Assembly: GCA_017881725.1 (NCBI GenBank) | Contig: JADGQO010000135.1 | Location: forward strand, 65,807-129,806 | DNA length: 64,000 bases | Reading direction: 5' to 3' | Source: Fibrobacteria bacterium | Lineage (GTDB): Bacteria; Fibrobacterota; Fibrobacteria; UBA11236 | Part shown: one piece after another, positions 11,001 through 46,398 of the stretch | Numbering within the stretch: the first letter of the stretch is position 1 | Layout of the letters: each line of letters opens with the position of its first letter | Notes under the pieces: model-generated | What the model saw: only the letters and a program-made list of their open reading frames with translations | Database searches by the model: none | What the model was told of the DNA's origin: nothing | Position numbers and translations under genes: made by a program

Positions 11001-11052
11001 AGTTGAAACTTAATCGAACACGGTTACAAAACATCCAATCATTGAAAGAGGA

Positions 11053-14617: not shown

Positions 14618-16933
<2,316 letters not shown>

Positions 16934-16941
<8 letters not shown>

Positions 16942-17269: not shown

Positions 17270-17597
17270 GGCCATGAACCGAATAACGACGGGCCTGGCG
17301 GGTCTGGCTGGTTTGGGAATAGGCACAGTCTTCTTCGGCGGCTTGTGGTGGACTGTGCGCCAAGGGGTAACCTCCAAGCGACCGGCGCTTCTTTTCACGG
17401 GCAGCATGGTGGCGCGTATGGGGTTCGCCCTGACCGGATTCTATTTCGTCTCGGCTCACCATTGGGAACGCGCGGTAGCCTGCCTGATCGGCTTTGTCGC
17501 GGCGCGCATGGCCGTGCGCATGACCGTGGAGAAGCTGGCGGGACCGAAATCGGAGCCCCAATCGGCCGAGACCCGGGAGGCCGGGAGTGCGGCTTAG
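17262..17597 (+). CDS. atpR: N-ATPase membrane protein AtpR (conserved intramembrane Arg)
   Basis: Start is MHEAMNRITTG at ATG 17262. It has two TM helices with Arg in 'SMVARMGFALTGF'. It is positioned before atpB, as in N-ATPase operons. Confidence 0.5.
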   Translation: MHEAMNRITTGLAGLAGLGIGTVFFGGLWWTVRQGVTSKRPALLFTGSMVARMGFALTGFYFVSAHHWERAVACLIGFVAARMAVRMTVEKLAGPKSEPQSAETREAGSAA

Positions 17598-18282
17598 CGC
17601 AGATGAATTGGTCTTTTGGAGGCATGGCTTCATCAAGGTCAATGCGACCATCGCCTATACCTGGGGACTGATGATCCTGATGGCCTTGGGCGCCAAACTC
17701 ATCACCCGTAACCTGTCGAAGGATCTCAAGCGATCGCGCTGGCAAAACCTTCTTGAGATCCTGGTCACGGCAATTGGGAAGCAGATCGGTGAAATCGGTT
17801 TGCGCGATCCGGGCAAGTACCTGGGCTTTCTGGGCACTCTTTTCCTGTTTATCGCCATGGCCAATATCTGCACCATCCTACCCGGATATGAACCTCCCAC
17901 GGGTTCGCTCTCGACTACAGCGGCCCTGGCCCTCTGCGTCTTCGTGGCCGTGCCCTATTATGGAATTACGGACCGTGGTTTGGGCGGCTACCTCAAGTCC
18001 TATCTGGAGCCGACTCCCATCATGCTACCGCTCAATATCATCAGCGAGCTTTCCCGCACCTTGGCCATGGCCGTCCGCCTGTTCGGCAATATGATGAGCG
18101 GCGCCATGATCATCGCGATTCTTTTGACCATCACGCCTTTTCTTTTCCCCATTGTCATGACCGCGCTGGGCCTGCTCACGGGAATGGTGCAGGCCTATAT
18201 CTTCAGCATCCTGGCCGCAGTGTACATCGCCGCCGCCACCCGCCCTGTTACTGAACAAAAACCGGAACGAAAACCGAAATGA
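17587..18282 (+). CDS. atpB: N-ATPase Fo subunit a
   Basis: 231 aa. 'LAMAVRLFGNMMSG' contains the essential Arg of subunit a. Confidence 0.85.
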   Translation: MRLSADELVFWRHGFIKVNATIAYTWGLMILMALGAKLITRNLSKDLKRSRWQNLLEILVTAIGKQIGEIGLRDPGKYLGFLGTLFLFIAMANICTILPGYEPPTGSLSTTAALALCVFVAVPYYGITDRGLGGYLKSYLEPTPIMLPLNIISELSRTLAMAVRLFGNMMSGAMIIAILLTITPFLFPIVMTALGLLTGMVQAYIFSILAAVYIAAATRPVTEQKPERKPK

Positions 18283-18297
18283 CCCAAGGAACCTGAT

Positions 18298-18579
18298 ATG
18301 GACTATACCAGCCTCATCGCCATCGCCTCCATCATCACCGCCGGATTCACGACCAGCATCGGATGCATCGCACCCGCCCTGGGGGAAGGGCGATCGGTCG
18401 CGACCGCCTTGACCGCGCTCGCCCAGCAGCCGGACGCCTCCGCCACCATTACGCGGACCTTGTTCATCGGACTCGCCATGATCGAGTCCACGGCCATCTA
18501 TTCCTTTGTGGTCTCCATGATCCTCATCTTCGCGAACCCGTTCTGGAACCATGTCATCGCTCAGGCCGCGGGGAAGTGA
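18298..18579 (+). CDS. atpE: N-ATPase Fo subunit c with complete Na+-binding ligand set
   Basis: 93 aa. Helix 1 has 'ALAQQPD' (Gln); helix 2 has 'GLAMIESTAIYSF' (Glu-Ser-Thr...Tyr). This is the Q...ESTxxY pattern of Na+-translocating c-rings such as Ilyobacter tartaricus. Confidence 0.85.
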   Translation: MDYTSLIAIASIITAGFTTSIGCIAPALGEGRSVATALTALAQQPDASATITRTLFIGLAMIESTAIYSFVVSMILIFANPFWNHVIAQAAGK

Positions 18580-18582
18580 TCC

Positions 18583-19407
18583 ATGCTCATCGACTGGTTC
18601 ACCGTCGGCGCCCAGGCGTTGAACTTTATCATCCTAGTCTGGCTGATGAAGCATTTTCTGTATAAGCCAATTCTCAATGCCATCGACGCCCGCGAGCAGC
18701 GCATCGCGAAGGAGATCGCGGATGCCGATGCCAAGAAGGCGGAAGCCTCGAAGGAGCAGGAAGAGTTCCGGAAAAAGAACGAGACCTTCGACAAGGAACG
18801 CACCGACCGGTGGGCCAAGGCCGGCGAAGAGGCGAAAACCGAAGGCGCAAGGCTCCTCACCGAGGCCCGTAAAGTCGCCGATGCCTTGAGCGCCAAGCGC
18901 CGCGAAAGCCTGGCGAGCGATGCCCGCAATCTCAACGACGCCATTCTGCGGAAAACCCAACAGGAGGTTTTCGCCATCGCGCGGAAAGCGCTGGGGGATC
19001 TCGCCTCCACCGGATTGGAGCAAAGCCTGGCAGGGGTTTTCATCCGCAAGTTGGGTGAGATGGACGCCCCGTCCAAAGAAATTTTCGGCGCGGCCCTTAA
19101 GTCCTCTGACTCTCCGGCCGTGGTCAGGAGCGCCTTTGATCTGCCACAAGATGCGCGCGATGCCGTCCAGAAGGCCCTTAATGAAACTTTTTCGACCGAG
19201 GTCCGCCTCAGCTTTGTGACCGCGCCGGATTCGATTGGCGGCATCGAACTCGCGGCCAATGGCCAGAAGGTATCGTGGAGCATCGCGAATTACCTGGGCT
19301 CTCTGGAATCGGCCGTGAGCGAACTCGCGGATCCCAAAGCCAAGGCCACGCCCGCAACAACGGCTGCGCCCGCAACGATCGGAGCATCCGATGGAAGCCA
19401 TGCCTGA
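18583..19407 (+). CDS. atpF: N-ATPase Fo subunit b (long, 274 aa; no separate delta gene in operon)
   Basis: An N-terminal TM helix is followed by a long charged coiled-coil '[28 protein letters not shown]'. Confidence 0.7.
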
Positions 19408-21064
19408 AAACCTGGAAGGCGCCGTCGACCGGGCCCTCGCTGGCCTGAGGCAAATCCGCGAAAACTTTCGGCCGCAGATCATTCCCCATGAGGTGGGCCT
19501 GATCGCATCGGTATCGACAGGTATCGCCAAGGTTACGGGGTTGCCGGGCGTGGGTTACGAAGAACTTATCCGATTCCCGGGCGGGGTCTCCGGCATCGCC
19601 TTCAATGTGGACGAAAACGAAATCGGCGTTGTGTTGCTTGGCGAATACTGGCACCTCCAGGCCGGCGATGAGGTGGAACGTACGGGGCGCGTCATGGACG
19701 TCCCCGTGGGCGACGGGCTGCTTGGCCGCGTACTCGATCCGCTCGGACGGCCGCTGGATAACCATGGTCCAGTCGCTTCGCAGGGAAGGCTGCCCATCGA
19801 AAGGCCGGCGGCGGCCATCATGGATCGTGCGCCGGTCACAGTGCCGCTGCAAACGGGACTCAAGGTGATCGATGCGCTCATTCCCATTGGGCGCGGGCAG
19901 CGCGAATTGATTCTCGGGGACCGGCAAACCGGCAAGACCGCCATCGCGCTCGACACCATTCTCAACCAAAAGGGCAAGAACGTTCTCTGCGTCTACTGCG
20001 CCATCGGCCAGCGCGCCTCGGCCGTGGCCAAGGCGGTTGCGGTCCTCCAGGAAAAAGGCGCGATGGAATATACGGTGGTGGTCGTATCGGAAGGCAACGA
20101 TCCTCCCGGGCTCGCTTATATCGCCCCCTATGCCGCAACCAGCATCGCCGAGCATTTCATGGAGACTGGCCGCGACGTGCTCATCGTCTATGATGATCTC
20201 ACCCAACATGCGCGCGCTTACCGCGAATTATCCCTGCTGCTCCGCCGCCCGCCCGGCCGTGAAGCCTTTCCCGGGGACATCTTCTATATCCATTCCCGCA
20301 TGCTCGAACGCGCCACCCACTTGGGCAAGGAGCATGGCGGCGGTTCGTTGACCGCCCTGCCCATCATCGAAACCGAGGCGCAAAACATCTCCGCCTATAT
20401 TCCCACCAATCTGATTTCGATTACCGACGGACAGATCTACCTGTCGCCGAGCCTGTTCGAGTTGGGCGTATTGCCCGCCGTGGACGTTGGCAAATCCGTT
20501 TCCCGCGTGGGCGGCAAGGCGCAGCGGGCCGCCTATCGGGCCGTTGCCGGCGATCTCAAATTGGCCTATGCGCAATTCGAAGAGCTGGAAACCTTCGCAC
20601 GTTTCGGCGCGCGTCTGGACGATGACACGCGCAAGAAGCTGGAGCACGGTCGTCGCATCCGCTCCTGCCTCAAACAATCAGAATTCTCCCCCGTCTCTGT
20701 ACCCGCGCAGATCATGGTCCTCCTGGCTTTGACCGGCGGCCTGTTTGATCCGGTCCCGATGGAGAAAATGAAAGAGGCGGAAAAGGCCGTCCAGGCTGCT
20801 GCGACGGATATCCCGCAGGAAATCGTAACCCGCTTCGAAGCCACGGCGAAACTGGCCGACGACGATCGGAAAGCCATCCTCGCCATTGCCGATAAGACCC
20901 TGACGCCCTTCCGGCCCAAGCCCAATCCGGATGACAAGGACAAAGCAAAGGTCGATAAAAAAGTAGCCTCCAATACCGATGCGAAGGCCGACTTGAACCA
21001 TGAGGCGAAGTCCGAAGCAAAGACCACGGCCAAACCTAGTCCGGTAAACGAGGCGGCCGCTTGA
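19391..21064 (+). CDS. atpA: N-ATPase F1 alpha subunit with about 45-aa Lys/Asp/Ala-rich C-terminal tail
   Basis: Walker A '[11 protein letters not shown]'. The C-terminus is '...[47 protein letters not shown]'. Confidence 0.95.
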
Positions 21065-21951
21065 GCGAGAACACCGAAAGCCTGCGCCGCAAGATGGCCA
21101 GCGCCGGCGATCTTCAATCCGTTGTCCGCACCATGAAAGCCCTGGCGGCCTCCAGCATCGGTCAGTACGAAAAATCCGTTCAAGCCCTCTCCGAATATTA
21201 TCGAACCGTGGAACTCGGCTTGGCCGTATGCTTCCGGGAAATCCAATCCACCACGCCGGACCCGGCAAGGAAACCGCACGCGGATACGGGCGCCATAGGC
21301 GCAATTGTTTTCGGGTCCGATCAGGGATTGGTAGGTCAATTCAACGAAGTGGTGGCCGACTATGCCATCAAGGCCATCCACGCGCTGGGAACGAAGTCCG
21401 GTAAGCTTCAGGTGTGGGCCGTGGGTGAAAGGGTCCATTCCCATTTAGCCGAAGCGGGGCTTCCCATAGCGGGCCTGTTCGCTGTGCCCACTTCTGTTGC
21501 GGCCATTATTCCCTTGGTCGGGAAAATCCAAATCGCAAGCGAATCCCGACGCGGAACTGACGATACGGCGCGCGTTTTCGTCTTCCACAACCGTCCGCAA
21601 GCCGGCGGCCAATATGAGCCCTTCAGCCAACGTTTATTGCCGCTGGATTCCGAATGGCAACGGGGATTGGCCGATATCAAATGGCCCGTTAAAACGGCGC
21701 CGCAAGTCTTGGCCGGTGCGGCCCCGACCTTGATCTCCCTGGTGCGCGAATATCTGTTCATCTCCCTCTTCCGAGCCTGCGCGGAATCCCTAGCGAGTGA
21801 AAATGCGAGCCGCCTTTCGGCCATGGAACGGGCGGAAAAGAATATCGGGGAATTACTGGAACAGTTGCATGGCACCTTCAACCAACTCCGGCAGAGCGGC
21901 ATCGATGAGGAATTGTTCGACGTGATCTCCGGATTCGAGGCAATGTCGTAA
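21061..21951 (+). CDS. atpG: N-ATPase F1 gamma subunit
   Basis: 296 aa with a gamma-subunit N-terminal helix '[25 protein letters not shown]' and a C-terminal helix. Its start overlaps the atpA stop. Confidence 0.85.
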
Positions 21952-25979: not shown

Positions 25980-27182
25980 GTGAAGCCCGCCGATAACGCC
26001 GATTCAATAGCCCAAGAATTTCACCTGAATCCTGATTTCGATTTCTCCCTGACGGGGGCGGAATCCCGATTGGATTCACCGGGGGAATCTTACGTGCATG
26101 AAATGACTTGGCATTTTCTTTTCGCGCCGAGTCCGCGGGATTCCTTAATCGTTTTCAAACCGTTCCCGATGGAATTCATGGAATATCTGCGCGCCAAAAA
26201 CCTGGAGACGCCGCGCATTGTCCTGCACCCGGATTTCACGCCGACCTCGCGATTCGCTCCCTTTGGATGGAATGCGCAAACCAAAAAATTGGCGGCCCGG
26301 TATGATTCACATGGGTCTCAAGTCCGACATCCCGATTTGGATACGATACGCAAGGTAAACTCGCGTGAATTCAGTCTGGGTCTGGAAGGGACATGGAGTG
26401 GGTCCCGATTATTTCGTGAGTGGAACGAATTGGAATTTTTTTTACAAAAATTGGACGTGGACTTCGAGTGGATGGCCAAAGGAATTCACGGGCATGCCGG
26501 AACGGCGAATTTGCATTTCAGAACTAAAAACCGATCCGAAATGGAAAATCAATTCCTGAAGGCCTTGCTGCGCGACCATGACGCACTGGTTTTAGAACCC
26601 TGGCATCAGCGCATAATGGATCTGGCGGTGAACTTCACCGTATCGGAAGGCGGAGAGATTTCCGATTTCCGCGGTCATGAATTGTTGAATTCCCGGGACG
26701 GCGCCTTCCTCGGAATCAAAATTTTTCCGGATCGTATGCCTCCAAATCCTTGGCGCGTCGAGTTGATGGCGTCAGCTCGCAAATTAGGACAGGCCTTGTG
26801 GAGGGAAGGCTATTTTGGCCCCGTCAGCGTGGACGCTTATGTCCATTCGACACCGACTGGCCCGCAGCTGCGCGCTTTGGTGGACGTCAATGCCCGACTC
26901 TCCATGGCCGCCCAGGCCCATGGTTTGGCCAAGCGCATCCCTGACCGTCATTTAATCTGGACTTGGATTAAACCACGTAAATTGCGGCCCCTTTCGGACT
27001 ATGCCGATATGGAGACCAAATTGGGCGTCGCCGCATTCGATCCCATCACGCAAAGGGGTATCCTTCCGGTTTCCCCGATTCGAGCCACGCCGCGACGGAT
27101 CGGCTTTCTGCTTGCCGGACGCGATGAGGATGATTTGCGCAACTTGCAAAACGTGTTCCGAAATAAGTTGGGGCGCGTCTGA
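25980..27182 (+). CDS. Hypothetical protein, possibly ATP-grasp-like fold; start (GTG 25980) uncertain
   Basis: 400 aa. 'GPVSVDAYV' and 'LVDVNARLS' resemble the ATP-grasp hh(E/D)hNxR motif. Its stop overlaps the miaA start (TGATG). There are no confident family motifs. Confidence 0.35.
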   Translation: MKPADNADSIAQEFHLNPDFDFSLTGAESRLDSPGESYVHEMTWHFLFAPSPRDSLIVFKPFPMEFMEYLRAKNLETPRIVLHPDFTPTSRFAPFGWNAQTKKLAARYDSHGSQVRHPDLDTIRKVNSREFSLGLEGTWSGSRLFREWNELEFFLQKLDVDFEWMAKGIHGHAGTANLHFRTKNRSEMENQFLKALLRDHDALVLEPWHQRIMDLAVNFTVSEGGEISDFRGHELLNSRDGAFLGIKIFPDRMPPNPWRVELMASARKLGQALWREGYFGPVSVDAYVHSTPTGPQLRALVDVNARLSMAAQAHGLAKRIPDRHLIWTWIKPRKLRPLSDYADMETKLGVAAFDPITQRGILPVSPIRATPRRIGFLLAGRDEDDLRNLQNVFRNKLGRV

Positions 27183-28596: not shown

Positions 28597-29499
28597 ATGC
28601 GCATGAACATGGGATCGCACGGGATCGTTCGCTTCGCTTTGTCCGCTTTCGCGGGACTGAGTTTTTGGCAATGCGAAAGAACGGTTGTCTTCGCCCCCAA
28701 GGTGCCCGACTCGGCGCATTTCCGTGATTTTCATCTCGGCACCTATTCCACTAAATACGACGAGGATAAGGAAATCGAGGGAACGATTTTCCAGACCACG
28801 CTTTCCTTCGACTTAAAAAAAGAAAGCGGCGGGTGGCTATGGCACAGGAAACTCGACACGTTGATCGCTCGAGGCTATCATAAATTGTCCATGCCGCATG
28901 AGCTGGAGCGGAAAGTCGATTTGGATTTTCACATGGACGCCTCCATGATCCCGATTCGCATCAACGGATACGACAGCCTCAAGGCCGTTTTAGGCAGGAT
29001 CCAACAAAAGGAAGAGTTTAAAAAAGTCTTGTTGCAGTCCAGCGACACGGCTCATTATCGGGCGGAATGGCGCGACTGGTGGCGGATGAATAATGCGTTG
29101 CCGAAAGGCGTGAAGCTGGAGGCTAAAAAGGCCCTTCCGGTCACAGAGCTCAACAAATCCCTGGAAACCGTAAAAGTGGATTCCGCGCGCTTCGACGGCC
29201 CGCGTCCCCGCTTGAAGCGCACTTGTCTCGATTTCACCTTGTACTACCACCGCACCGATTCCCTGGCATTGTTGGTCGAACAATTCTTTTTCTCCGGAAC
29301 GCAGAATCGGAAATACCGAAAGTATTCCTGGAAGCCAACCGTCGTACAGGGTTTCCTCCAGTATTCGGTCGAGAGATCCACGGGCCTTCCCTGTTTCCAG
29401 TCGAAAACGGAAATGGCCGATATAACCTTGGAATACAAACCGGAGAAGGCCGAAGCGCCCATCCATCTTTACCGGTATGAAGAAGATATTTACGAATAG
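28597..29499 (+). CDS. Hypothetical secreted protein
   Basis: 300 aa with a hydrophobic N-terminus 'GIVRFALSAFAGLSFW'. The SD 'GAAAGGA' favours ATG 28603 over 28597. Confidence 0.4.
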   Translation: MRMNMGSHGIVRFALSAFAGLSFWQCERTVVFAPKVPDSAHFRDFHLGTYSTKYDEDKEIEGTIFQTTLSFDLKKESGGWLWHRKLDTLIARGYHKLSMPHELERKVDLDFHMDASMIPIRINGYDSLKAVLGRIQQKEEFKKVLLQSSDTAHYRAEWRDWWRMNNALPKGVKLEAKKALPVTELNKSLETVKVDSARFDGPRPRLKRTCLDFTLYYHRTDSLALLVEQFFFSGTQNRKYRKYSWKPTVVQGFLQYSVERSTGLPCFQSKTEMADITLEYKPEKAEAPIHLYRYEEDIYE

Positions 29500-29878
29500 T
29501 CGCCTGCTCTTATCCGGTCTGGCGTTGCTCTGTAGCGCTTGCGCTTTCACCGACTACGGGAACCGGATTAATCAGGAACAATTGGATATTGCCCGCATGG
29601 AAGACCGGCGCCACAAATTGGAAACCGAGTACATCATCGTACTGAATAATTTGGAAACCCATCCAACCGAAGATCGGCTGATCAAGGAACGCGACGTCGT
29701 ACGAGAAAAGTTGCGCGATTTAGAGACCCAAATCGAAGAAAAACGGAAGGGTCTCGACCAAAGTTTCCGGGAATGGGAAGAAAAAATCGTACAGGAAAAG
29801 ATTGAGAAGCAAATGGTCGACAAGGAAGTTAAGGAAAACGCCGGCAAAGACGAGGACGTGGAGTTCAATCCGAAATAG
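29477..29878 (+). CDS. Hypothetical lipoprotein with coiled-coil
   Basis: Signal peptide plus lipobox 'LLLSGLALLCSAC', then a Glu/Lys-rich helical region. It overlaps the previous gene by 23 bp. Confidence 0.45.
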   Translation: MKKIFTNSRLLLSGLALLCSACAFTDYGNRINQEQLDIARMEDRRHKLETEYIIVLNNLETHPTEDRLIKERDVVREKLRDLETQIEEKRKGLDQSFREWEEKIVQEKIEKQMVDKEVKENAGKDEDVEFNPK

Positions 29879-31965: not shown

Positions 31966-33765
31966 ATGCCAACCGCGGCATTTCATTCTTGGCTAATAGC
32001 AACCTGCTTAATGCTCCATGCAACATGGAGTGCGACGACTACGTCTATAAACTTGGTGAGGGAGGATTTCAGCGAAGCAACGGATTCCCTTTGGCATTTC
32101 CAGTCCGCAGCATACCGTGACGGCGTATTGAGTCCGGGACGAGAGGCGAGCATTCCAGGGATTGGGCCGAGCACCGGGCAGCTTCACATCGATCGGAGCG
32201 CTAAAGGCCTGATTTTCACTCCTAGGTTTCTTCACAATTCATTCCGATCATGCTTTTTAGCCTACCGGAACGATTTCCGCATGGAGTCGGTTTATGCAAG
32301 TCATGTCCGCGTTGAGTTCCAGGAAAACCTGGTCGATCCCGCGCAGGACGATTCGTTGGGCGGTTTATTCCTGCTCATCAAATTCGAAGGGGAGGCAGGA
32401 TATCACGGATTGATTCGGACCACCTCAAAGGTGCGGGGCGGGAAATCCTACAATCTGGATACTTGTCAATTCATCGGTGTGAATACAGGCGATTGGCTGA
32501 GTCAGCAAAAAGTTGAACCGGATGTTCGCGAGTTTGCGCTGGGGCATATTTCCGGGGTCGGGTTCTTTTATATCTCGGGTGAAAACGGATCCGCCGCGAC
32601 AAAATCCTTACAGGTTGGATCAGTTCACGCCAAAGGCGATTTAAATTGGCCGCGCTTGGATGGTAAAACGGAAAATGTCCATGTCCGAGCTGGCGATACA
32701 GTGACCTTACGGTGGGATTTCCCCTCGGGATTGCCAGCTAAATTCCACTGGTTCCGAAATGAAAAACCGGTCCAGGATGCGCAGGGTCCGGTGTACCGAT
32801 ATACGCCTTCCAAAGAAAATATTATGACGCATGTATTCCGCGCGGAAGCCACGCTCGAAAACGGGCAATTGATCCCCATGGGCGATTTCCGGGTTCAAGT
32901 CGTCAGATCGGCGGCGCCGGTGATCCGTATGCAATCCGGCGATACCTCCGTTCCGATCGGTGGCGACGTCATTTTTAGGATTAAGGCCGAAGGCATGGAG
33001 CCCTTGGCACTTCAATGGTTTAGAAACGCCAAACCCATTGTGGGTGCGAAACAAATCTTGTACACGTTCGAGCCAACTTCCATCAATGAGGGAGGCCAGT
33101 ACTATTGTGAAGTTACCGATCGACAGGGTCTTGTCGCCCGCAGCCGGCAGGTTGGATTGATCATAAAGCCGGGGCCCGGCGCGGACGGTTGGTTGCCGGA
33201 GGGATTTTCCGTATCCGCTAAAGTAGGGGTTAATCTCTCGGATTATTATCGAGATGAATCCGGACTCCCGGCGAGCGAGTTCCAATTCAATTATTTCCAT
33301 GCCGGATTGCAAGCAGATTGGCTGTTCAGACCGGCGGTCGGATTGCAGGCGGACTTGCTCTTCGTCCGGAAATCCGTTGGGCGCACCTATTCGGATCACT
33401 CCGCTTTATTGTTAATGAATACCCTGGAATCGCCCTTGCTTGTTAAAATCCGGCTCGTGAAGAGTATGCCGAAAACGCCGTTGTATGCTCTCATAGGCGG
33501 ATATGCCGCCTACGTTTTGAGCGCGGACATGGAAAATGATTGGGGATCTTGGAAAACCTCCGGGCCCGCCGACGGTTATGCCAGTTGGGATTACGGACCA
33601 ACTGTGGGAATGTCCTGGCAAATCGGAGTCCTATCCTTGGAATGGCGGTATTCACTGGGCCTTGCGGATCTGGGCGGTGGAAATGGAACAGGCCAAATGA
33701 TGATGGGCGCGGTTTCCGGGACGATTGGCTTCAGTCTTTTTTCCGCGCAAGACTCGGCGAGGTAG
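31966..33765 (+). CDS. Secreted protein with two Ig-like (I-set-like) domains and a C-terminal beta-barrel-like region
   Basis: It has a signal peptide. Two domains each carry 'WFRN(E/A)KP' and the second a 'GGQYYCEV' Ig signature. The C-terminal third has alternating aromatic/Gly strands ('WLFRPAVGLQADLLFV', 'EWRYSLGLADLGGG'). Confidence 0.6.
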   Translation: MPTAAFHSWLIATCLMLHATWSATTTSINLVREDFSEATDSLWHFQSAAYRDGVLSPGREASIPGIGPSTGQLHIDRSAKGLIFTPRFLHNSFRSCFLAYRNDFRMESVYASHVRVEFQENLVDPAQDDSLGGLFLLIKFEGEAGYHGLIRTTSKVRGGKSYNLDTCQFIGVNTGDWLSQQKVEPDVREFALGHISGVGFFYISGENGSAATKSLQVGSVHAKGDLNWPRLDGKTENVHVRAGDTVTLRWDFPSGLPAKFHWFRNEKPVQDAQGPVYRYTPSKENIMTHVFRAEATLENGQLIPMGDFRVQVVRSAAPVIRMQSGDTSVPIGGDVIFRIKAEGMEPLALQWFRNAKPIVGAKQILYTFEPTSINEGGQYYCEVTDRQGLVARSRQVGLIIKPGPGADGWLPEGFSVSAKVGVNLSDYYRDESGLPASEFQFNYFHAGLQADWLFRPAVGLQADLLFVRKSVGRTYSDHSALLLMNTLESPLLVKIRLVKSMPKTPLYALIGGYAAYVLSADMENDWGSWKTSGPADGYASWDYGPTVGMSWQIGVLSLEWRYSLGLADLGGGNGTGQMMMGAVSGTIGFSLFSAQDSAR

Positions 33766-33958
33766 AGAGTTCGATGTCGATGATGGATTTTCAGGGAAAC
33801 TCAACCGCAGTCCGAAGCAGCTGGGACAGAAACGCCGCCCTAGAAGCGGAAGAATCTTTGCCGCAAACCCTAACACTTACTGGGAAACACCTTTGAACCT
33901 GAAGGTAGTGAGCGGCTTACGTGCAGGGCACGGAAACCGTAAAGGAATGGGGAGGGGC

Positions 33959-34354
33959 ATGCAATTGTTGACGCGAATCTCGTTAGGCTTGCTATTGGCT
34001 CTGGCTTCGAACTCCAATGTTAGCGCGGGTGTGGTGACAGTCTGGGGCGAAGAGGTTAACCCCGCGCTCGGAGCAAAGATTCTGATCAACAACTTTTACA
34101 ATAGTTTGCCGGGAACTAGTTCATTGATAGCCAACGGCGATTTGACAACGGTCGACTTGACGACCACCAATTTATTATGGGCCACCCAATCCGCAGACGA
34201 TTATACCCCTGCCGAACTCGCCAAGATGGCGAGTTTCGTGGCTTCGGGCGGTCGCATCGCATTCATGGGGGGAACATGGCCAAATCGCCCCCAGCCAGAA
34301 TCTCCGCATCAATGCCGCATTGGCATATTTAGGAAGCAGCATTACGATCAATAA
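33959..34354 (+). CDS. Small secreted hypothetical protein (131 aa)
   Basis: ATG 33959 has a GGAGGGG SD and a signal peptide 'MQLLTRISLGLLLALASNSNVSA'. The track ORF from 33725 is an extension. Confidence 0.35.
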   Translation: MQLLTRISLGLLLALASNSNVSAGVVTVWGEEVNPALGAKILINNFYNSLPGTSSLIANGDLTTVDLTTTNLLWATQSADDYTPAELAKMASFVASGGRIAFMGGTWPNRPQPESPHQCRIGIFRKQHYDQ

Positions 34355-34732
34355 TCTCGGCTTTGGCATTTCAAAGCCGCAGCCTATAGGGACGGCGTTC
34401 TCAGCCCCGGCCAGCAAGCCGAAATCCCCGGAAGTGGACCCGCAACCGGTCAGTTGGGGATCGATCCGGAAGTCGCTCGCCTTCGCTTCATCCCGAAGCG
34501 TTTGCATAACGCCTTTCGCTCCTGTTTCCTGGCATCCCGGAATGACTTCCGCGCCGATTCGGTTTTTGCTTCTCACGTATAGGTTAATATCGCCGAAAAG
34601 CTGGTGGTTCCGGCATCCGATGATTCCATGGACGGGCTGTATATCATGATCCTATACGAATCCGAAATGGGATTCCAGGCGATGGCCAGAACCTTGGTTA
34701 AAGTAAAGCAAAATGCGGAGCAATAGCAGGCA

Positions 34733-37700
34733 ATGAGCGTCAAGAACATTCGAAAAACGGTTTTCGCTTTTACGTGTCTTTTTTCCGTCTTCAATTCATC
34801 GCTATTCGGACAGGCGGTCAGGTCTATCCCCCTATCGGGGTCCCTTCCGCGAGTGGACGATGACGGAAGCGTATCTACGGGACTTGGCTTTACCATAAAC
34901 TTTTTCGGCGTCAATTATTCGAATGTTTGGGTCAATAACAACGGCAATATCACCTTCAACTCGGCTTTGGACACTTACACGCCGTACTTGATCGCCCATA
35001 ACTCAATCCCAATGTTCGCGCCCTTTTTCGCGGATGTCGATTCCCGTTTTTACGGGAACGTGACCAAGTATGGCACCGGAACCTTGGAAATCGCTCCGGG
35101 AAATTCCAGACCCATCTTTTGCGTGAATTGGATCGATGTCGGATTTTTTAACGGCAGCGGTGCGCCTTCCGATAGGACCATCCTGAACAGCTTCCAAATG
35201 ATCATAACGAACAGAGATGACATCGCGCCCGGCGATTTCGATCTCGAGTATAATTACGACAAAGTAAAATGGGAGGCGGGGACGGCGAGCGAGGGAAGTT
35301 CTTCCGGTTTAGGCGGCACAAAGACCGCGTCCATGGGGTGGTCCAACGGAACCACCACCTATTACTCCCACAGCGGATCTTTGCAAGCGGGAGCGTTTCT
35401 GGATACCGGCCCGAAAAGCCTAAAGGATAACAGCCTGAATTCGACCGTCAAAGGACGGTATGTCTTTTTCGTCCGTAACGGCGTCGTGGTCGACCTGATA
35501 GGCCCGCAAACCTTTACTATCAGCGAATTGGCCGGTCCATCCGCCCTTGTCGGCCGGGTGAACACGACGACTTTATTCCCCCGCGATAGCATTTCCTTTT
35601 CCATCGTTCCTCCGGTGCTGCCGGAATTCGCCATGGCCGCCGATACCAGCGGCGCCATCAGAGTGGGCGCGGACGCTCGCTTCGATTTCGCGAACAAGAG
35701 CACCTACACTTTTTTGGTGGTCGCGAATTATCGGAACGGCGTCTATCGGGATACAGCCCTGATGACGGTCAATCTCACCCCGAATATCCTTCCCACGACG
35801 AATCCGGTCACCATATCCAATCCGCTGACTCCCTCCCCGACAATCGGATGGACCTATACCGATGCGGAAAACCGGCCGCAGACCCGGTATGATGTGGAAG
35901 TGCGGACAGGGCCTAATGGTACCGGGTCCAGTTTTTGGCATCCGGATACGGGAAATGGGGCGGCATCGAATCTCCTATACGCGGGACCCGCCTTGCTCAA
36001 TGGACAAACCTACTATGCGAGGGTAAGGGCCTTCGATGGCACCGGCTGGGGATCATGGTCCGAAGCCGCCTGGACAACGGCGCTGAATGCCCCGCCGGTC
36101 GCCAAAGCGGGACGGGATTCGACCCTCTATGCGGGTGCGAGTTGCCAGGCCGCACTAAGGTTGGACGGGAGCGGCTCTTCCGACCCGGATGGGGATTCCA
36201 TCACCTATGCATGGAGCGGCGCCTTCAGCGGAACATTGACCGGGATTTCACCGACAGTTTCGCTCCCCCTCGGCGCCCAGAACATCTTGCTTGCCGTTAC
36301 CGATTCAAAAGCCGCTATCGGTCGCGATACGGTCGCCATTACGGTCCTGGACAGCCTTAAACCTATTCCCTCCCTGGCAAGACTGCCCGATGTCTTAGGA
36401 TCCTGTTCGGCGAGCCTCAAATCCATCGCTCCCACTGCCACCGACAATTGCAAAGCGACTATAACCGCTACCACCGTCGATTCCATCTCCTTTGCCACCC
36501 AAGGTACTCGTACCGTGCATTGGATCTATACCGATGACAACGGCAATATCTCAACTCAAAATCAAACCGTTATCGTACGCGATCTGGTTCCTCCAAAAAT
36601 CACGCCGGGCTCGGATACCTCGATTATCATTTCCGCGTCCATGCTTTCCTCCAGGGTCGCGCTCAAGCCCGCTTCCGCCATCGACAGCTGTTCCCTCGCT
36701 ACAAGCTTGGGGACCCGTGATGATGGCTTATCGCTGGATTCCGCTTATAGGCTGGGAATTACCAAGGTACAGTGGAAAGCTTGCGACAACTTCGGTAATT
36801 GCGATAGTTCGATTCAAAAGGTGACTTTGATAAGGAATCGTCCCCCCGTTCTTGTTGCCAACCTGGATACCGCCTATAAAGAAAAAGACTTCCTCCGGTT
36901 CTTGATTACCGCAACGGATTCCGATGGCACCCTTGCAAGGATTTCAGCTGCGACAGAACTCCCGTCGGGCGGTTCATTCATAGACAGCGGGAGCGGAAAG
37001 GCATCACTGCTCTGGCCAAGGAATTGCAATGATCATTGCGTAGATCGGGTTACGCTTCAAGCTTCTGACGGCATTGATTCCGTTTCCAGCCAGATCATCG
37101 TGCAACAGGTGGATAAGCCCGCGGCCTTCCATCCAAATGCCACCGCATTCGCCGATTCCACCTTGTTCCCCGATTCGATTTGCATGCAATTCACCACCCC
37201 AACCGATAGCGCCACCCTGCATTATGTCTTGAGTGGGCCAGGTCGGGATACTTCGTCTTTCCTGATCGGCGACAGGCAAAACCTTTGCTTCGATCGTACC
37301 GTGACGGTGACGGTGGCGGCCACCCGGCCCGGGTGGATTAATAGCCTTCCCCTAAGCCTGCATGTGTTGAAAATGGATACCGCGCAAGCGCCCGAGGCCA
37401 AGCCCGGCGACTCCACGTATTTTCAAAAATCGCTTTGCGTCACCCTGACATCCGCGACCCCTGGGTCGAAAATAAATTTGACCCTCCGCGGCCGCTCTGA
37501 GGATTCAATGGGTATCGTGAAACCGAATGGAGATTCGGTATGCATTGAAGATACGACCACGATTCTCGCCATAACCCGAAAAGCGGGCATGGTCCAAAGT
37601 CCCGAGCGATCCTTCAATTTCATCCGCATGCAAAAAGCGGCCACGCCGGTTGCGGACAAACCCGATTCCACTTGGTTCGCCGATTCCCTTTGCTTGCGCA

Positions 37701-40600
37701 TCGTTACCGCCACGCCGGATGCAGAAGTCCACTATTCACTGAATGGGAGCGCTCCGGATTCTTCGGCCTTGATTCTGGTGGCGGGAACATCGCTTTGTCT
37801 CGATGGAAGTGCGAAAATTCGAGCTATCGCCCTTAAGCCTCATTGGATAAACAGCGACGAAATATTGCTTCACATGATTAAGATGGACACCGTCGGCATT
37901 CCGGTTTCCGACCGAAAGGATTCCACGTATTTTCGTGACTCGTTGTGTTTCAATTTATCCGTGCCGACAGCCGGCGCGGAAATTCATTATACCCGTGACG
38001 GCGGCGCTCCGGATACCTCCCGCGCCCTGTTTAACGGCAGCGGACGAATGTGCGTGTACGATACGGCCAAGGTTCGGGCCATCGGGAAAAAAACCAACTG
38101 GATCACGGGACAACCCGCTGCCTGGACCTATATCCGTATGCAAAAAGTGGCTGGCCCCATCGCCGACAAGCCGGACTCATCTTGGTTCGTGGATACCTTA
38201 TGCGTACGCTTTACTCTGCCGACCCCTGGATCGGAAATCCATTATACCTTGGACGGCGGCCGGGCGGACACATCCACCTTGGTATTACCCGCCGGCGAGG
38301 CCCTATGCCGCGACCGCAGCGGGGACATCCATGTCGCCGCCCTGAAAACCAACTGGATTCCCAGTAATGAAATCCTGCTGACGGTCAAAAAAATGGATAC
38401 GGTTTCCGTGCCCGTCGCGGATAAATCGGATTCCATCTATTACCAGGATTCCGTCTGCGTGAATCTGTCCACCGCCACGCCCGGCGCGGACATTCGCCTA
38501 ACGACCGACGGTGGAACTCCGGATACCACCGCGAACAAGCTTTCGGAACATGGCCGCGTATGCATGGACAAAACCGAAAACCTCCGCGCCGTAGCAACGC
38601 GCGAGCATTGGATCAACAGTCAGGCCATCAGTCGGACCTTTATCCGCATGCAGCGCATAGCTCAGCCGCGTTTCGATCAATCGGACTCCACGTACTTCAA
38701 AGATTCACTCTGTGTTCACGTCACGTCGGCTACCGACAGCGTGAAAATCCAGTATAGCACGGACGGCGGACGCGCGGATACGTCCTCTCGTTTCATGAGC
38801 AACGGTGCCCTGCTTTGCCTAGACGCTTCAGCGAAAATTAACGCCATAGCCGTGCAACAAAATTGGATTCCCAGCGAAGCTGGCGCACTGACCATTTTCC
38901 GAATGGAAACCGTGGCTCCTCCGCTCACGGACATCCCCGACTCGACCTTTTTCAAGGATTCCCTTTGCGTTCATTGGACTATCCCAACCCCCAATTCCGA
39001 AATCCACTACACCCACGACGCTGGGAAACCGGATACGACTTCCACATTTATGTTGGGCGGAACCACCACATGTTTTGACCGGTCCGTATCGATTCGATCC
39101 GTGGGCATGAAAACGCACTGGATCAACAGCGCGGAAGTGAACCGCGAGTATATTCGCATGCAGCCCATACCTAAGCCGGGGTTCGATAGGGGGGATACGG
39201 TATTTTACCCATCCGTTTGCGTGCAACTTTCTTCGGCCGTTGCGGGAGCCGATTTGCATTATACCCTGGATGGGGGAAACCCGGATACATCCTCCCAAAT
39301 CAAGCATGGCGGCGATACCTTGTGCCTGGACCGGACCGGCGACATCAAGGTCATGGCCAAGAAAAAGAATTGGTTGGACAGCGACCCGGCATCGATTCAC
39401 CTGGTAAAGATGGCGCAAGTCGCCGAAATCCATTCCAGCGTGGGGACGGATTCCATCGTTTATGCCCACAAGCTTTGTTTTAGATTGTTCTCAGCCACGG
39501 ATAGCACTCGCATTAAATACTCCCTGGACGGAGGCGATCCGCTTACGTCCGGACTTTCCATCGCCAGCGGTGATTCCGTATGCCTTGAGCAATCCGCCGT
39601 CGTCGTCGCCGTGGGTACTCGGGACTTGTGGAGAAATAGTCTGCCCTCAAGATTTGTTTTTGTCGTGGATAATGCCGGCCCCGACATTCTTAAGGCAGTC
39701 AAGCATCCCTTCAATATCCAGAATCTCTCGGTGACCGGAAATTGCCGCGGCATAGGGCAGGATACATTGGTGCTGACGCTTTCCGAAAAGTTGAAACCCA
39801 AATCCAATCCTCCCCGTTGGGATCGATTGGCCGTATTTTCATCGCGTTGCGATTTTAACGCGGCCATGCCTGTGACGATTCAAGGCGATCCGATTATTTC
39901 CTCGGATAGTCTTACCCTTTCGCTGCTTTTGGACAATAATTCTTCGGCCGAGGCGCCGAAACTTTCCAATTGCATTTATTTGGATTCGAAATCCGGTGAG
40001 TTTACGGATCAGGTTTTGAATCTTCCGGAAAAAAATGGGATCAAAATCACGGGTTCGGAAAAACTGGTGCGGATCAGCCAGTTGCGGGCCTATCCACCCA
40101 TAGTCGGATTGGACAATACTTCGACATCGCAAGGGTGCATTGACGAGGGCGTATCCGACAATACGTGGATTCCGCCGGTTGGATTTGACCCGGTCAAAGG
40201 CATCGTGGATCCCAATGCGTCCAACACCTGTACATCAGGCAGTGACAACGGGACCGATACTCCGCGAAGCTCCATCCCTGCTTGTACATCGATTCTTGAA
40301 GTGATCTCCGACGGCGCCTATGTGGCGGACGTCCGAATTTTCGACCAGTTGGGAAATTTCGTGAGTGGGTCCCGTCAACGTTTCGGCGCTTGCGGCGAGT
40401 TGGATAATTTGAATCGAAGCGTGGCCGGAAAGAAGCGAAGCTTTTTGGTTTGGAACACCCGGGATAACCAGGGCGCGCGCGTAGGCACCGGCGCCTATGT
40501 CTGGCGAGTGAATTTCATTTCCGACCGGAACGACGGGAAACAATCGGAAACCGTTTTTATCCGCACCGGTTTTTTACGCGGAGCCGCATGCAACGATTAA
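34733..40600 (+). CDS. Giant (1955 aa) secreted multidomain surface protein: NIDO-like N-domain, PKD-like and HYR-like modules, 10 tandem CHB_HEX_C-like two-Cys repeats, beta-sandwich-like C-terminal domain
   Basis: Signal peptide 'MSVKNIRKTVFAFTCLFSVFNSSLFGQA'. 'FFGVNYSNVWVNNNGNITFNS' is NIDO-like. 'DGSGSSDPDGDSITYAWSG' is PKD-like. 'TDNCKATITATTVDSISF...GTRTVHWIYTDDNGNIS' is HYR-like. There are ten repeats of the form 'DSxxFxDSLCxxxxxxTPxxEIHYTLDGxxPDTSSxxxxxGxxLCxDxSxxIxAxAxKxxWINSxxxxxxxIxM'. Confidence 0.75.
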   Translation: MSVKNIRKTVFAFTCLFSVFNSSLFGQAVRSIPLSGSLPRVDDDGSVSTGLGFTINFFGVNYSNVWVNNNGNITFNSALDTYTPYLIAHNSIPMFAPFFADVDSRFYGNVTKYGTGTLEIAPGNSRPIFCVNWIDVGFFNGSGAPSDRTILNSFQMIITNRDDIAPGDFDLEYNYDKVKWEAGTASEGSSSGLGGTKTASMGWSNGTTTYYSHSGSLQAGAFLDTGPKSLKDNSLNSTVKGRYVFFVRNGVVVDLIGPQTFTISELAGPSALVGRVNTTTLFPRDSISFSIVPPVLPEFAMAADTSGAIRVGADARFDFANKSTYTFLVVANYRNGVYRDTALMTVNLTPNILPTTNPVTISNPLTPSPTIGWTYTDAENRPQTRYDVEVRTGPNGTGSSFWHPDTGNGAASNLLYAGPALLNGQTYYARVRAFDGTGWGSWSEAAWTTALNAPPVAKAGRDSTLYAGASCQAALRLDGSGSSDPDGDSITYAWSGAFSGTLTGISPTVSLPLGAQNILLAVTDSKAAIGRDTVAITVLDSLKPIPSLARLPDVLGSCSASLKSIAPTATDNCKATITATTVDSISFATQGTRTVHWIYTDDNGNISTQNQTVIVRDLVPPKITPGSDTSIIISASMLSSRVALKPASAIDSCSLATSLGTRDDGLSLDSAYRLGITKVQWKACDNFGNCDSSIQKVTLIRNRPPVLVANLDTAYKEKDFLRFLITATDSDGTLARISAATELPSGGSFIDSGSGKASLLWPRNCNDHCVDRVTLQASDGIDSVSSQIIVQQVDKPAAFHPNATAFADSTLFPDSICMQFTTPTDSATLHYVLSGPGRDTSSFLIGDRQNLCFDRTVTVTVAATRPGWINSLPLSLHVLKMDTAQAPEAKPGDSTYFQKSLCVTLTSATPGSKINLTLRGRSEDSMGIVKPNGDSVCIEDTTTILAITRKAGMVQSPERSFNFIRMQKAATPVADKPDSTWFADSLCLRIVTATPDAEVHYSLNGSAPDSSALILVAGTSLCLDGSAKIRAIALKPHWINSDEILLHMIKMDTVGIPVSDRKDSTYFRDSLCFNLSVPTAGAEIHYTRDGGAPDTSRALFNGSGRMCVYDTAKVRAIGKKTNWITGQPAAWTYIRMQKVAGPIADKPDSSWFVDTLCVRFTLPTPGSEIHYTLDGGRADTSTLVLPAGEALCRDRSGDIHVAALKTNWIPSNEILLTVKKMDTVSVPVADKSDSIYYQDSVCVNLSTATPGADIRLTTDGGTPDTTANKLSEHGRVCMDKTENLRAVATREHWINSQAISRTFIRMQRIAQPRFDQSDSTYFKDSLCVHVTSATDSVKIQYSTDGGRADTSSRFMSNGALLCLDASAKINAIAVQQNWIPSEAGALTIFRMETVAPPLTDIPDSTFFKDSLCVHWTIPTPNSEIHYTHDAGKPDTTSTFMLGGTTTCFDRSVSIRSVGMKTHWINSAEVNREYIRMQPIPKPGFDRGDTVFYPSVCVQLSSAVAGADLHYTLDGGNPDTSSQIKHGGDTLCLDRTGDIKVMAKKKNWLDSDPASIHLVKMAQVAEIHSSVGTDSIVYAHKLCFRLFSATDSTRIKYSLDGGDPLTSGLSIASGDSVCLEQSAVVVAVGTRDLWRNSLPSRFVFVVDNAGPDILKAVKHPFNIQNLSVTGNCRGIGQDTLVLTLSEKLKPKSNPPRWDRLAVFSSRCDFNAAMPVTIQGDPIISSDSLTLSLLLDNNSSAEAPKLSNCIYLDSKSGEFTDQVLNLPEKNGIKITGSEKLVRISQLRAYPPIVGLDNTSTSQGCIDEGVSDNTWIPPVGFDPVKGIVDPNASNTCTSGSDNGTDTPRSSIPACTSILEVISDGAYVADVRIFDQLGNFVSGSRQRFGACGELDNLNRSVAGKKRSFLVWNTRDNQGARVGTGAYVWRVNFISDRNDGKQSETVFIRTGFLRGAACND
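37110..39660 (+). repeat. Intragenic tandem array, 10 x about 255 bp (about 85-aa units, diverged), within the giant surface protein gene
   Basis: The protein-level repeat recurs 10 times with conserved Cys pairs and WINS/IRMQK linker motifs. Boundaries are approximate. Confidence 0.7.
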
Positions 40601-45150: not shown

Positions 45151-46398
45151 CTATTTTGAGCGCGTCGAATCGGAAGCCGCAGGCAGCGGTTTTTTTTCGA
45201 CTATGGAATGGCATGAATCAGCGCGGATCGGCGCGGCCCCTGGAGTCGCGGTCGGCGCAGGCCCCGTGGGCGCAAGGGTTCCCGCTGCCGGTGCCGACGA
45301 GGCTGCCGATGTGGATGTCGGCTGTGTCGGTGATCCAGCCCCAGTTGCCGTCGCTGCGGCCGAGGTTGCCGGTGGGGATGTCGTAGTGGTTGACGAACCG
45401 GCGACGTTTGATATCGCTGCGGCAGGGGCTGCCGGGGGTTTGAAGCCGAATCGATACCAGAGCAGCAACGCGGCATGCATGGACGAAATTGTCCAGTGTG
45501 CGTCGCCGGATTCCGCGACGTCGGGCAAAAGATTTTTCCACGGCGTATGCGTATGGAATTGCTGATGGACAAATCCCAGCGTCCCGCTGATTTCCCAGGA
45601 TTTAGTCACGGCTTGTTCGAAACCGAGCAAAACCTCGAAGCCTGAACCGGCCGGATCAAACTGAGCGGGAGCCGATCCATAGCGGGTGTAGATTTCCGAA
45701 TTTCCCAAGTTCCAATACCAAAGTCCTTGGATGTAAAGTCCCAACTGATCCTTGACGGATAAAAGGGAAGGCGGGATCAAATAACGCAGACCCGTACCCG
45801 CCAGGTTACCCTGAACGGCGAAAAATTCGCTTCCGGAAGTCGTGGACGCGCCGCCGACGACCGTTTTGCCGACAATGGCCGTTTGTTGGTACCAGTAGGA
45901 TGCGGTTTTCGCCACCCAATCCAGGTAATCGGAAATGGGCCATTGCAATTGCAAACCGATGGGAAAGGCCAGGTGCACTGGTTCGTAGGCTTGCAGCAAG
46001 GTGAGGCTGTCGCGGCGATTGGTGGAGTCGACTTGCCGGGCGAACAAATCCTTGGCGCTCAAATCGATGAAATCCACCCCGGCGTAGATGGCCAAGCCGG
46101 GCAGCCGTTGCCGTATCTTGACGGTTACGCTGTCGTTGTGCGCGGAAGAAGTATCGGCCTTGACAGGGACATTAGGTGACCCTGGGGCTCCGGGCACTCC
46201 CGTCGCGCCGGGTTGCGCCGCTGGACCTCCAAATGGGGTCCGACCGGATTCGACTTGCCGAAAGGGATCCTGCGAAGCGGAATCGGACTTGAAAGCCGGA
46301 AGCGAATCGGCGGAGGCGGCATGCGCGCTAGTATACTTGCCTACCAGAACTGCCAAAAGGAATCCCGTCGCAACCCAGCGAGTTTTAAAATGATTCAC
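45151..46398 (-). CDS. Secreted hypothetical protein with C-terminal Ala/Thr/Ser/Pro low-complexity tail
   Basis: It has a signal peptide 'MNHFKTRWVATGFLLAVLVGKYTSAHA'. The body is aromatic-rich and possibly a beta-barrel. An approximately 80-aa 'AAPAAAISNVAGSSTTTTSPPATSAAATATGAGSPTQPTSTSAASSAPAAG' tail follows. Confidence 0.5.
   Translation of the reverse strand: MNHFKTRWVATGFLLAVLVGKYTSAHAASADSLPAFKSDSASQDPFRQVESGRTPFGGPAAQPGATGVPGAPGSPNVPVKADTSSAHNDSVTVKIRQRLPGLAIYAGVDFIDLSAKDLFARQVDSTNRRDSLTLLQAYEPVHLAFPIGLQLQWPISDYLDWVAKTASYWYQQTAIVGKTVVGGASTTSGSEFFAVQGNLAGTGLRYLIPPSLLSVKDQLGLYIQGLWYWNLGNSEIYTRYGSAPAQFDPAGSGFEVLLGFEQAVTKSWEISGTLGFVHQQFHTHTPWKNLLPDVAESGDAHWTISSMHAALLLWYRFGFKPPAAPAAAISNVAGSSTTTTSPPATSAAATATGAGSPTQPTSTSAASSAPAAGTLAPTGPAPTATPGAAPIRADSCHSIVEKKPLPAASDSTRSK

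Follow-up and report, generated by a model that had tools for sequence, protein, structure and literature searches.

The Fibrobacterota, which rank among the major degraders of insoluble polysaccharides, must adhere to their substrates. How their surface proteins are exported and retained is only partly understood, and the role assigned to the secretion system of type IX (T9SS) in this process derives mostly from overlapping annotations and from proteomics in one species. The T9SS has been placed in the Fibrobacteres–Chlorobi–Bacteroidetes (FCB) superphylum, and the Fibrobacterota are among the phyla that may have it (PMC6851124, PMC11285876). A basic C-terminal domain (BTD) of enzymes of Fibrobacter succinogenes, among them glycoside hydrolases, has been proposed to act as a signal of the T9SS type, with cleavage taking place upon attachment (PMC6851124). 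Cargo proteins whose C-terminal domain (CTD) is of type B, such as SprB, are proposed to be held at the cell surface, through that domain, by the outer-membrane barrel PorP/SprF, and the genes sprB and sprF are adjacent (PMC11205867, PMC9143113). In the present study we analysed a surface-protein locus in a 64,000-nucleotide stretch of DNA, hereafter the window, from a Fibrobacteria bacterium (assembly GCA_017881725.1, contig JADGQO010000135.1, positions 65,807 to 129,806). Three consecutive open reading frames (ORFs), named P1, P2 and P3, are present on the + strand at the coordinates that a previous reading, made from the sequence alone, had given (Table 1), and its proposal that the locus encodes envelope or surface proteins is supported. 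Newly recognised here are the family of an uncatalogued module of ~305 amino acids (aa), which forms the C-terminus of the giant protein P3, and the conserved pairing, in one subfamily of such proteins, with an outer-membrane barrel protein bearing immunoglobulin (Ig) domains, P1. The other parts of the locus are known domain types.

The C-terminal module and its family

No model in Pfam or NCBIfam covers the module. The sequence-only reading had noticed a C-terminal segment of ~100 aa, whereas alignments and hmmsearch delimit a conserved, tripartite unit of ~305 aa, made up of an Ig-like subdomain, a linker and a terminal beta-sandwich. The terminal domain has the signature 'IFDxLGxFV ... QxFGYxGEL ... 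SYLVW ... GxGVYxWK ... RTGxxR' and is basic, with an isoelectric point (pI) of 9.0 in the window protein and a median of 9.2 in the family. Word-indexed homolog searches under-reported the family, returning 4 and 7 relatives; its size was shown by an exhaustive hmmsearch against 1.84 billion representatives, which yielded 302 cluster representatives, 243 of them at E≤1e-10 and 135 at E≤1e-30. The module ends no more than 14 residues from the C-terminus in 154 of the 154 members retrieved (median 1), and 123 of these contain it in full, tripartite form. A separate class of carriers having the terminal domain only was dropped upon local re-analysis, most of them having the full module split into two stretches.

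There is one copy of the module per protein and exactly one carrier per locus. Carriers are 600–3200 aa long, and their upstream domains include Flg_new_2 arrays, VWA, CHB_HEX_C/Fn3_assoc arrays, FG-GAP, PA14 and Big_7. Sec signal peptides are common, a hydrophobic N-terminal core being found in 69 of the 87 full-length carriers. Signal-peptidase sites followed by Gln were also seen (AxA↓Q in 22 carriers, and 'SLFG↓QA' in P3, window 34733-34825), and they are reminiscent of the 'Q-rule' described for substrates of the Bacteroidota signal peptidase I. All organism tags available, those of 8/8 genome loci and of 5/5 tagged proteins, are Fibrobacterota (Fibrobacteria and Fibrobacter sp. included). 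Among the sources of carriers are the MAGs DAINDC01, JAYUVP01, JANYDA01 and DATENA01 and a Fibrobacter sp. genome, which encodes the VWA protein MCQ2101685.1. In public databases the carriers are annotated as 'hypothetical', 'Fn3 associated', 'VWA domain-containing' or 'chitobiase ... C-terminal domain-containing'.

When 38 short family members were scanned singly against NCBIfam and Pfam, all matches were sub-threshold. The C-terminal end of PorU, which is PorU's own CTD (positions ~1026-1087 of 1095), was matched by 16 of the 38 members (best E 1.9e-05), two FlgD models by 13 and 7 (best E 2.4e-04 and 3.5e-04), and FlgD_ig of Pfam by 12 (best E 5.1e-05). Fewer members matched CHU_C of Pfam (five, best E 0.0032), the CTD end of PorZ (four, best E 0.0016), TIGR04183 (four, best E 0.0048) and TIGR04131 (one, E 0.074). 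The window sequence taken alone gave E-values of 0.03-0.08 for CHU_C, 0.04-0.09 for FlgD_ig, 0.013 for the PorU end and 0.037 for the PorZ end; TIGR04183 had no match in the whole window protein at E≤1, and Por_Secre_tail (PF18962) none in P3 or in the members. The AlphaFold2 (AF2) model of the terminal domain (pLDDT 90.4, pTM 0.79) is a beta-sandwich of six to seven strands, and the whole module was modelled at pLDDT 69.7. In a Foldseek search with the whole-module model (316 aa, two domains), PorU was the top match at E 5.8e-07, with low TM-scores (~0.2) and matches of a generic tandem-Ig kind. Judging from these profile matches and models, the terminal domain is a predicted member of the FlgD-Ig/T9SS-CTD structural group, its nearest detectable relatives being the CTDs of T9SS proteins, and it stands outside every curated CTD family by those families' own thresholds. 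In position it agrees with a type A CTD, being placed at the very C-terminus of proteins that begin with a Sec signal peptide. Our best reading is that the module would be a divergent T9SS-type sorting or anchoring module.

The P1–giant cassette and the layout of P3

The architecture of P1 (Table 1) is common to 14 homologs, and OMP_b-brl_2, Ig_2, Ig_3 and I-set were matched by Pfam in 13 of 13 P1-family members. In P1 itself all four exceed their gathering cutoffs, given in brackets: OMP_b-brl_2 with 45 bits (27) and, over aa 235-390, Ig_2 with 37 (27), Ig_3 with 35.8 (30) and I-set with 28.4 (23.7). The last strand of the barrel is aromatic-rich ('TIGFSLF'). A profile of 13 P1 homologs searched against the PDB matched a bacterial Ig-like protein (1.5e-36), a phage tail protein (3.6e-27) and titin (1.6e-19). 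Since these PDB matches are I-set proteins, the earlier description of P1 as eukaryote-like I-set Ig domains joined to a porin-like barrel is correct. P1 was also considered as a TpsB protein, which was ruled out: its barrel, of ~190 aa, is of the OMP_b-brl_2 type and without POTRA, as opposed to the 16-strand barrel of the Omp85 type. The public entry identical to P1 (P0172, NCBI) is only 494 aa long, being called from an internal Met, and is without the signal peptide and the ~105 N-terminal residues conserved in all 590-635-aa homologs; this public gene call is probably too short.

P1 homologs (41-65% identity) lie directly upstream of a giant gene in three related loci (L001, L009 and L010), the giant starting 3 nt after the P1 stop. 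The giants of these loci, of 1983-2450 aa, end in the same C-terminal module. The gene order is identical on an ENA contig, and the relatives of the locus come from Fibrobacterota metagenome-assembled genomes (MAGs) only. A spacing of 3 nt leaves no room for P2 in the three syntenic loci, and since P2 is thus absent from them, the conserved unit is a two-gene cassette consisting of P1 and the giant. In the locus of the closest ortholog (L001, Fibrobacterota MAG DAINDC01), the terminal domain of the giant shifts reading frame (10717-10956 vs 3722-11074), explained by a frameshift in the assembly or else by a pseudogene; the same locus contains 20 Ns.

In the window, P1 and P3 are ~970 bp apart, with the P2 ORF in between. 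P2 had been taken for a small secreted protein, and its N-terminus is indeed signal-peptide-like and its G+C content at third codon positions (GC3) similar to that of the neighbouring genes. It has no family match in Pfam or NCBIfam, no PDB match below E 0.1 and no homolog by tblastn or phmmer in the related loci or among the retrieved proteins, and the claim that it is a real secreted protein thus found no support. P2 is a non-conserved ORF and probably not a functional part of the cassette. Directly after its stop, and in its frame, there follows a decayed P1-type gene fragment with two in-frame stops, which is 60% identical to the resident P1 (blastp E 3e-49, no gaps) and 70% identical to P0176, which is a P1 homolog of different metagenomic origin. 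Since it is closer to P0176 than to the resident P1, the fragment is a remnant of a different allele and not of a recent local duplication, which suggests that the cassette once recombined with another allele or was replaced by one. Because P2 is followed by a pseudogenised P1 fragment in frame, the spacer as a whole looks like rearrangement debris.

P3 had been described as NIDO, PKD and HYR domains followed by ten CHB_HEX_C-like repeats. The NIDO domain (72.2 bits with the cutoff at 25, over positions 2-185 of the 186 in the profile) and the ten repeats stood, and the HYR domain was found as HYR_4C (PF23237, 38.9 bits vs 27 on the isolated segment) and not in its classical form (PF02494, 16.7 bits vs 21.7). 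The PKD-like domain stayed just below the cutoff of 27 (K319L-like_PKD 25.7 and PKD_4 25.0 bits; PF00801, PF18911 and PF22352 tested), while the PKD-containing region NF038112 of NCBIfam matches P3 at 1.4e-08. Three more stretches, without a Pfam match at E≤10, resemble by eye a cadherin-type repeat at aa 250-365 (35480-35827) and, within 36590-37108 (aa 620-792), another domain of the HYR kind at aa ~625-712 ('VQWKACDNFGNCDSSIQKVTL') and an Ig domain of the He_PIG/cadherin kind at aa ~713-792.

The repeats number exactly ten, each with a Cys pair at 35-residue spacing, and all units align in register. As a block they score 142.6 bits on CHB_HEX_C_1 (PF13290, cutoff 22, E 3.5e-42) and 116.5 bits on Fn3_assoc (PF13287, cutoff 23, E 5.4e-34), and they did not map to another family such as Big_2 or Cadherin-like. 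Because the units belong to CHB_HEX_C_1/Fn3_assoc, and related arrays are present in orthologs, the block does have a described counterpart, which the sequence-only reading had denied. Pairwise identity between repeats is 22-55% at the protein level and 39-58% at the DNA level. There is a partial two-repeat super-period of 510 nt, and several DNA repeat families are likewise spaced by 510 nt, which points to an expansion by duplication of two-repeat units. The repeats alternate between two flavours, recognisable by the junctions '...IRMQK...DKPDS' and '...KMDT...'. The Cys pairs of the orthologs, 9-15 in number and likewise spaced by 35 residues, are taken here as the same repeats, so that copy number would vary.

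Orthologs have the stalk of repeats and the C-terminal module in common with P3. Residues 1-800 of P3, from NIDO through HYR, have no match in any other family member, the closest orthologs included, and the orthologs have heads of the type fn3-Big_7x4. P3 and its orthologs are thus built in the manner of fibrillar adhesins, with a head that would be ligand-binding and exchangeable. The relic of a P1 allele adjoins a gene whose 800-aa head is unrelated to those of its orthologs, and the relic would be consistent with recombination at the locus. Other adhesin types were considered for P3 and rejected. Its N-terminus is a NIDO domain without the haemagglutination domain of two-partner secretion (TPS) cargo, and for adhesins of the type I secretion system (T1SS) and autotransporters both the defining domains and the neighbour genes are absent.

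Table 1. Features of the locus, with positions in the window
Feature	Position	Strand	Residues	Basis or remark
P1, outer-membrane protein	31966-33765	+	599 aa	Pfam, PDB profile search, homolog architecture, synteny
P1 signal peptide, then a conserved N-terminal domain of unassigned family			aa ~24-230 (domain)	
P1 I-set Ig domain, first	32668-32865	+	aa 235-300	Pfam
P1 I-set Ig domain, second	32917-33129	+	aa 318-388	Pfam
P1 C-terminal OMP_b-brl_2 beta-barrel	33202-33672	+	aa 413-569	Pfam, E 1.7e-11
P2, orphan ORF	33959-34354 (mechanical ORF 33725-34354)	+	131 aa (209 aa)	ORF call; plausible ATG start at 33959, mechanical ORF from TTG at 33725
Decayed P1-type gene fragment	34361-34708	+	equivalent to P1 aa 42-157	Three-frame translation, DNA alignment, blastp
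P3, modular surface protein	34733-40600	+	1955 aa	ORF, Pfam domains, orthologs
P3 Sec signal peptide			aa 1-26	'SLFG↓QAVRS', Gln at +1
NIDO (nidogen-like)	34922-35476	+	aa 64-248	PF06119, E 7.5e-20
Ig_Rha78A_N/fn3-like, PKD-like and HYR_4C	35828-36574	+	aa 366-450, 452-540 and 560-614	Pfam
Ten tandem CHB_HEX_C_1/Fn3_assoc repeats	37109-39658	+	aa 793-1642	Pfam; unit of 85 aa (255 nt)
Conserved C-terminal module, ~305 aa	39683-40597	+	aa ~1651-1955	Alignments, hmmsearch, AF2 models
Module part 1, Ig-like subdomain	~39761-40093	+		Alignments; 'DTLxxTLSE ... GNCxYLN ... YTDxxGNxP'
Module part 2, linker 'RAYPPIVG ... NTWIPPVGF'	~40094-40234	+		Invariant motifs 'R(A/G)YPPVxG' and 'W(I/V)PP'
Module part 3, terminal basic beta-sandwich	40235-40597	+	~105 aa	Ends 'IRTGFLRGAACND'

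The window has a G+C content of ~55%, and a scan of the locus for promoters and terminators gave a signal no better than that of shuffled sequence. According to NCBIfam/Pfam-type scans of the large ORFs, the remainder of the window consists of housekeeping genes, among them those for glucan phosphorylase, acetate kinase, phosphoketolase, LigA, MiaA, TrmFO, PurH, PurC, BamD, LptF/G and SppA. A row of genes at 3711-10805 specifies acetate kinase, a P-type ATPase for copper, phosphoketolase (1423 bits) and a class I fructose-bisphosphate aldolase, so that a phosphoketolase route may be suspected in this lineage of the Fibrobacterota. At 15081-21951 there is a cluster including the beta subunit of an 'alternate F1F0 ATPase' (TIGR03305, E 7.6e-269), an N-ATPase-type operon beside metabolism genes. 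ORFs near the locus without an NCBIfam match (28597-29878, 25980-27182 and 45151-46398) encode proteins of 300, 133, 400 and 415 aa, the one of 133 aa being lipoprotein-like with a charged coiled-coil.

Proposed export and anchoring of the giants

We propose that two genes of this locus make up a conserved cassette for a surface adhesin in uncultured Fibrobacterota, in which the giant would be exported by a T9SS-type route through its C-terminal module, with P1 as a partner, a proposal whose chances of being right or wrong we hold to be about equal. P3 would first be exported by Sec, by means of its N-terminal signal peptide with Gln at +1. Its lineage-specific head (NIDO, fn3/Ig, PKD-like and HYR) would contact the ligand and be kept off the cell by the stalk of ten beta-sandwiches of the CHB_HEX_C/Fn3_assoc type, each presumably stapled by a disulfide. 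The ~305-aa module would either carry P3 across the outer membrane or fix P3 to it, the terminal beta-sandwich (last ~105 aa) being recognised by a T9SS-type machinery, and P3 would be displayed as a long adhesin. P1 may then be a dedicated outer-membrane partner or anchor of the adhesin, a functional analogue of PorP/SprF from another protein family.

A number of observations weigh against this proposal. The sequence-only reading had suggested that the C-terminus could be a T9SS-CTD-like domain, for which no formal support was obtained: no family member reaches the curated cutoff of any T9SS CTD model, the window protein scores at E 0.01-0.08, and what is found are recurrent CTD matches below threshold and no secretion-system match at cutoff. 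A PDB sequence-profile search retrieved no solved T9SS CTD, and the terminal-domain model can be superposed on solved T9SS CTDs no better than on FlgD or on the Fn3-like domains found in C5a peptidase and in Vpr. The module has about three times the length of canonical CTDs, and public annotation never names its carriers as T9SS cargo. No T9SS component was found among the 20 large window ORFs scanned, the sole signal from a T9SS model being a TPR-level PorW match (1.3e-06) on a YbgF/CpoB-like protein, and neither a T9SS gene nor a recurrent partner was found among the few scanned neighbours of the paralogous carriers in L003, L006 and L001, which include a pyruvate dehydrogenase, a LytR-type regulator and a PBP-like protein. 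As for P1, genes of its type accompany only the subfamily orthologous to P3 and not the paralogous carriers in L003-L008. Its barrel is of the OMP_b-brl_2 and not of the PorP/SprF type, as it would be in an SprB–SprF pair; it gave no PorP/SprF or PorT signal, and no PorP/SprF match was obtained in 13 P1-family members at E≤0.1. Finally, a barrel of 8-10 strands normally leaves an N-terminal extension in the periplasm, which makes the proposed anchoring topology questionable.

Several of these points would also fit a T9SS-independent, Fibrobacterota-specific anchoring, in which the module would dock on an envelope receptor (the Ig/barrel protein P1 here, other partners elsewhere), export would take another route, and the resemblance to CTDs would reflect a shared FlgD-Ig-type fold only. 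That all T9SS-model matches are sub-threshold, that no T9SS genes occur among the scanned window ORFs and locus neighbours, and that the family is confined to one phylum as far as seen are in line with such an explanation, as are the tight conservation of the P1–giant operon and the length of ~305 aa, with an Ig-like subdomain and an R(A/G)YPPVxG...WIPP linker that are absent from canonical CTDs. However, neither TpsB/Omp85 nor T1SS components (ABC/MFP/TolC), nor an autotransporter barrel or usher, adjoins the carriers examined; moreover, a P1-type neighbour is missing at most carriers, and the closest relatives in sequence and structure are the CTD-bearing T9SS proteins PorU and PorZ. We regard it as rather unlikely. 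We attach a similarly small probability to a bolder reading, in which the module represents a Fibrobacterota-specific sorting or anchoring class, being either a third class of T9SS signal or independent of the T9SS, with P1-type proteins as tethers and recombination of the cassette diversifying the heads. If this were true, a third T9SS class would have its own shuttle or anchor, giants would be tethered by dedicated outer-membrane proteins such as P1, and the occurrence of NIDO-PKD-HYR and fn3-Big_7 heads on the same stalk and anchor, with the remnant of a further P1 allele adjacent to the junction, would amount to a diversification of adhesin specificity.

The module could also be a structural or ligand-binding (for example carbohydrate-binding) beta-sandwich tail without any sorting role, in which case the giant would be a secreted or loosely attached glycan-binding protein and the adjacency of P1 a matter of co-regulation only. 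The generic Ig/Fn3-like fold, with good matches to domains that have no sorting function (glycoside hydrolases, C5a peptidase, Vpr), would agree with this, and the CHB_HEX_C, PKD and fn3 domains upstream are known from carbohydrate-active proteins; the 'polysaccharide-binding' role proposed in the sequence-only reading had been taken from such domain names only. A binding domain would need neither the strictly C-terminal placement observed in all retrieved members nor a single copy per protein, whereas the joining of the module to unrelated upstream domains (VWA, InlB-B repeats, FG-GAP) is what one would expect of a sorting signal, and a conserved final strand such as 'RTGxxR', like a basic pI, characterises sorting tails and not carbohydrate-binding modules. 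A plain tail is thus improbable in our view. Even harder to sustain is the idea, also put forward earlier, that P1, P2 and P3 jointly form a machine dedicated to adhesion or to the binding of polysaccharides, of which P2 would be a secreted subunit. While the three ORFs are consecutive on the same strand, and P2 has a signal-peptide-like start and a GC3 similar to that of its neighbours, P2 has no homolog in any of the sources searched, only 3 nt separate the P1 homolog from the giant in the three syntenic loci, and the pseudogenised P1 fragment in frame after P2 gives the spacer its debris-like appearance. P2 is probably not part of any apparatus, and a three-gene machine seems very improbable to us.

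The module offers a direct handle on the sorting of surface proteins in the Fibrobacterota; the giant adhesin-like proteins that it marks form at least 300 clusters, proteins of the genus Fibrobacter included. A profile of the module could identify a class of surface proteins that are now called 'hypothetical' or named after their passenger domains. The module can also be put to the test as a candidate for a divergent signal of secretion or anchoring, for which one subfamily yields, in addition, a candidate outer-membrane partner. If it is merely a distant type A CTD, the gain would be one of better annotation and not of new biology, and a T9SS specialist would not be surprised unless the module turned out to be T9SS-independent.

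Comparison with known systems

The P3 repeats are members of the CHB_HEX_C_1/Fn3_assoc arrays and show no essential difference from them, and NCBI names related giants after this domain; the orthologous group has features of its own in the 35-aa-spaced Cys pair and the 9-15 copies. The domains of FlgD_ig (PF13860), of the C5a peptidase ScpA and of Vpr, on which the terminal domain also superposes, differ from it in being internal, or part of a flagellar hook cap or of Gram-positive peptidases, and are not sorting tails.

With the SprB–SprF pair of Flavobacterium johnsoniae the locus shares the arrangement of a giant, repetitive adhesin gene adjoining the gene of a small outer-membrane barrel (PMC9143113, PMC11205867). 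The weak matches of five family members to CHU_C, a Pfam family of T9SS secretion signals, are a further likeness to type B cargo. Unlike SprF, P1 combines a unique domain at its N-terminus with two Ig domains of the I-set type, and the partner gene is located upstream of the giant here instead of downstream. The BTD/Fpm-1 of F. succinogenes resembles the module in belonging to the same phylum, in being C-terminal and in being basic (pI >9 vs a median of 9.2) (PMC6851124). Compared by description only, the module is much longer than the BTD, is found on adhesin-like giants and not on enzymes, and matches TIGR04183 weakly, whereas the BTD overlaps with the TIGR04183 annotation in some F. succinogenes enzymes.

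Closest to the module are the type A CTDs of T9SS proteins (TIGR04183/PF18962), in particular those retained by PorU and PorZ, with that of PorU the nearest. Both are strictly C-terminal and in single copy on large, Sec-exported surface proteins from lineages of the FCB superphylum. Going by its model, the terminal domain also resembles them as a compact, basic beta-sandwich of 6-7 strands, in which a 'G.G.Y.W' strand is followed by a final conserved strand. The module differs in its length of ~305 aa, Ig-like subdomain included, and in having its own signature. To our knowledge, a PPV/WIPP linker together with an Ig-like subdomain has not been described for T9SS CTDs. In its general plan, with an Ig-like subdomain and a linker in front of a terminal beta-sandwich, the module recalls the gingipain RgpB, in which an immunoglobulin superfamily (IgSF) domain is connected by a linker to the CTD.

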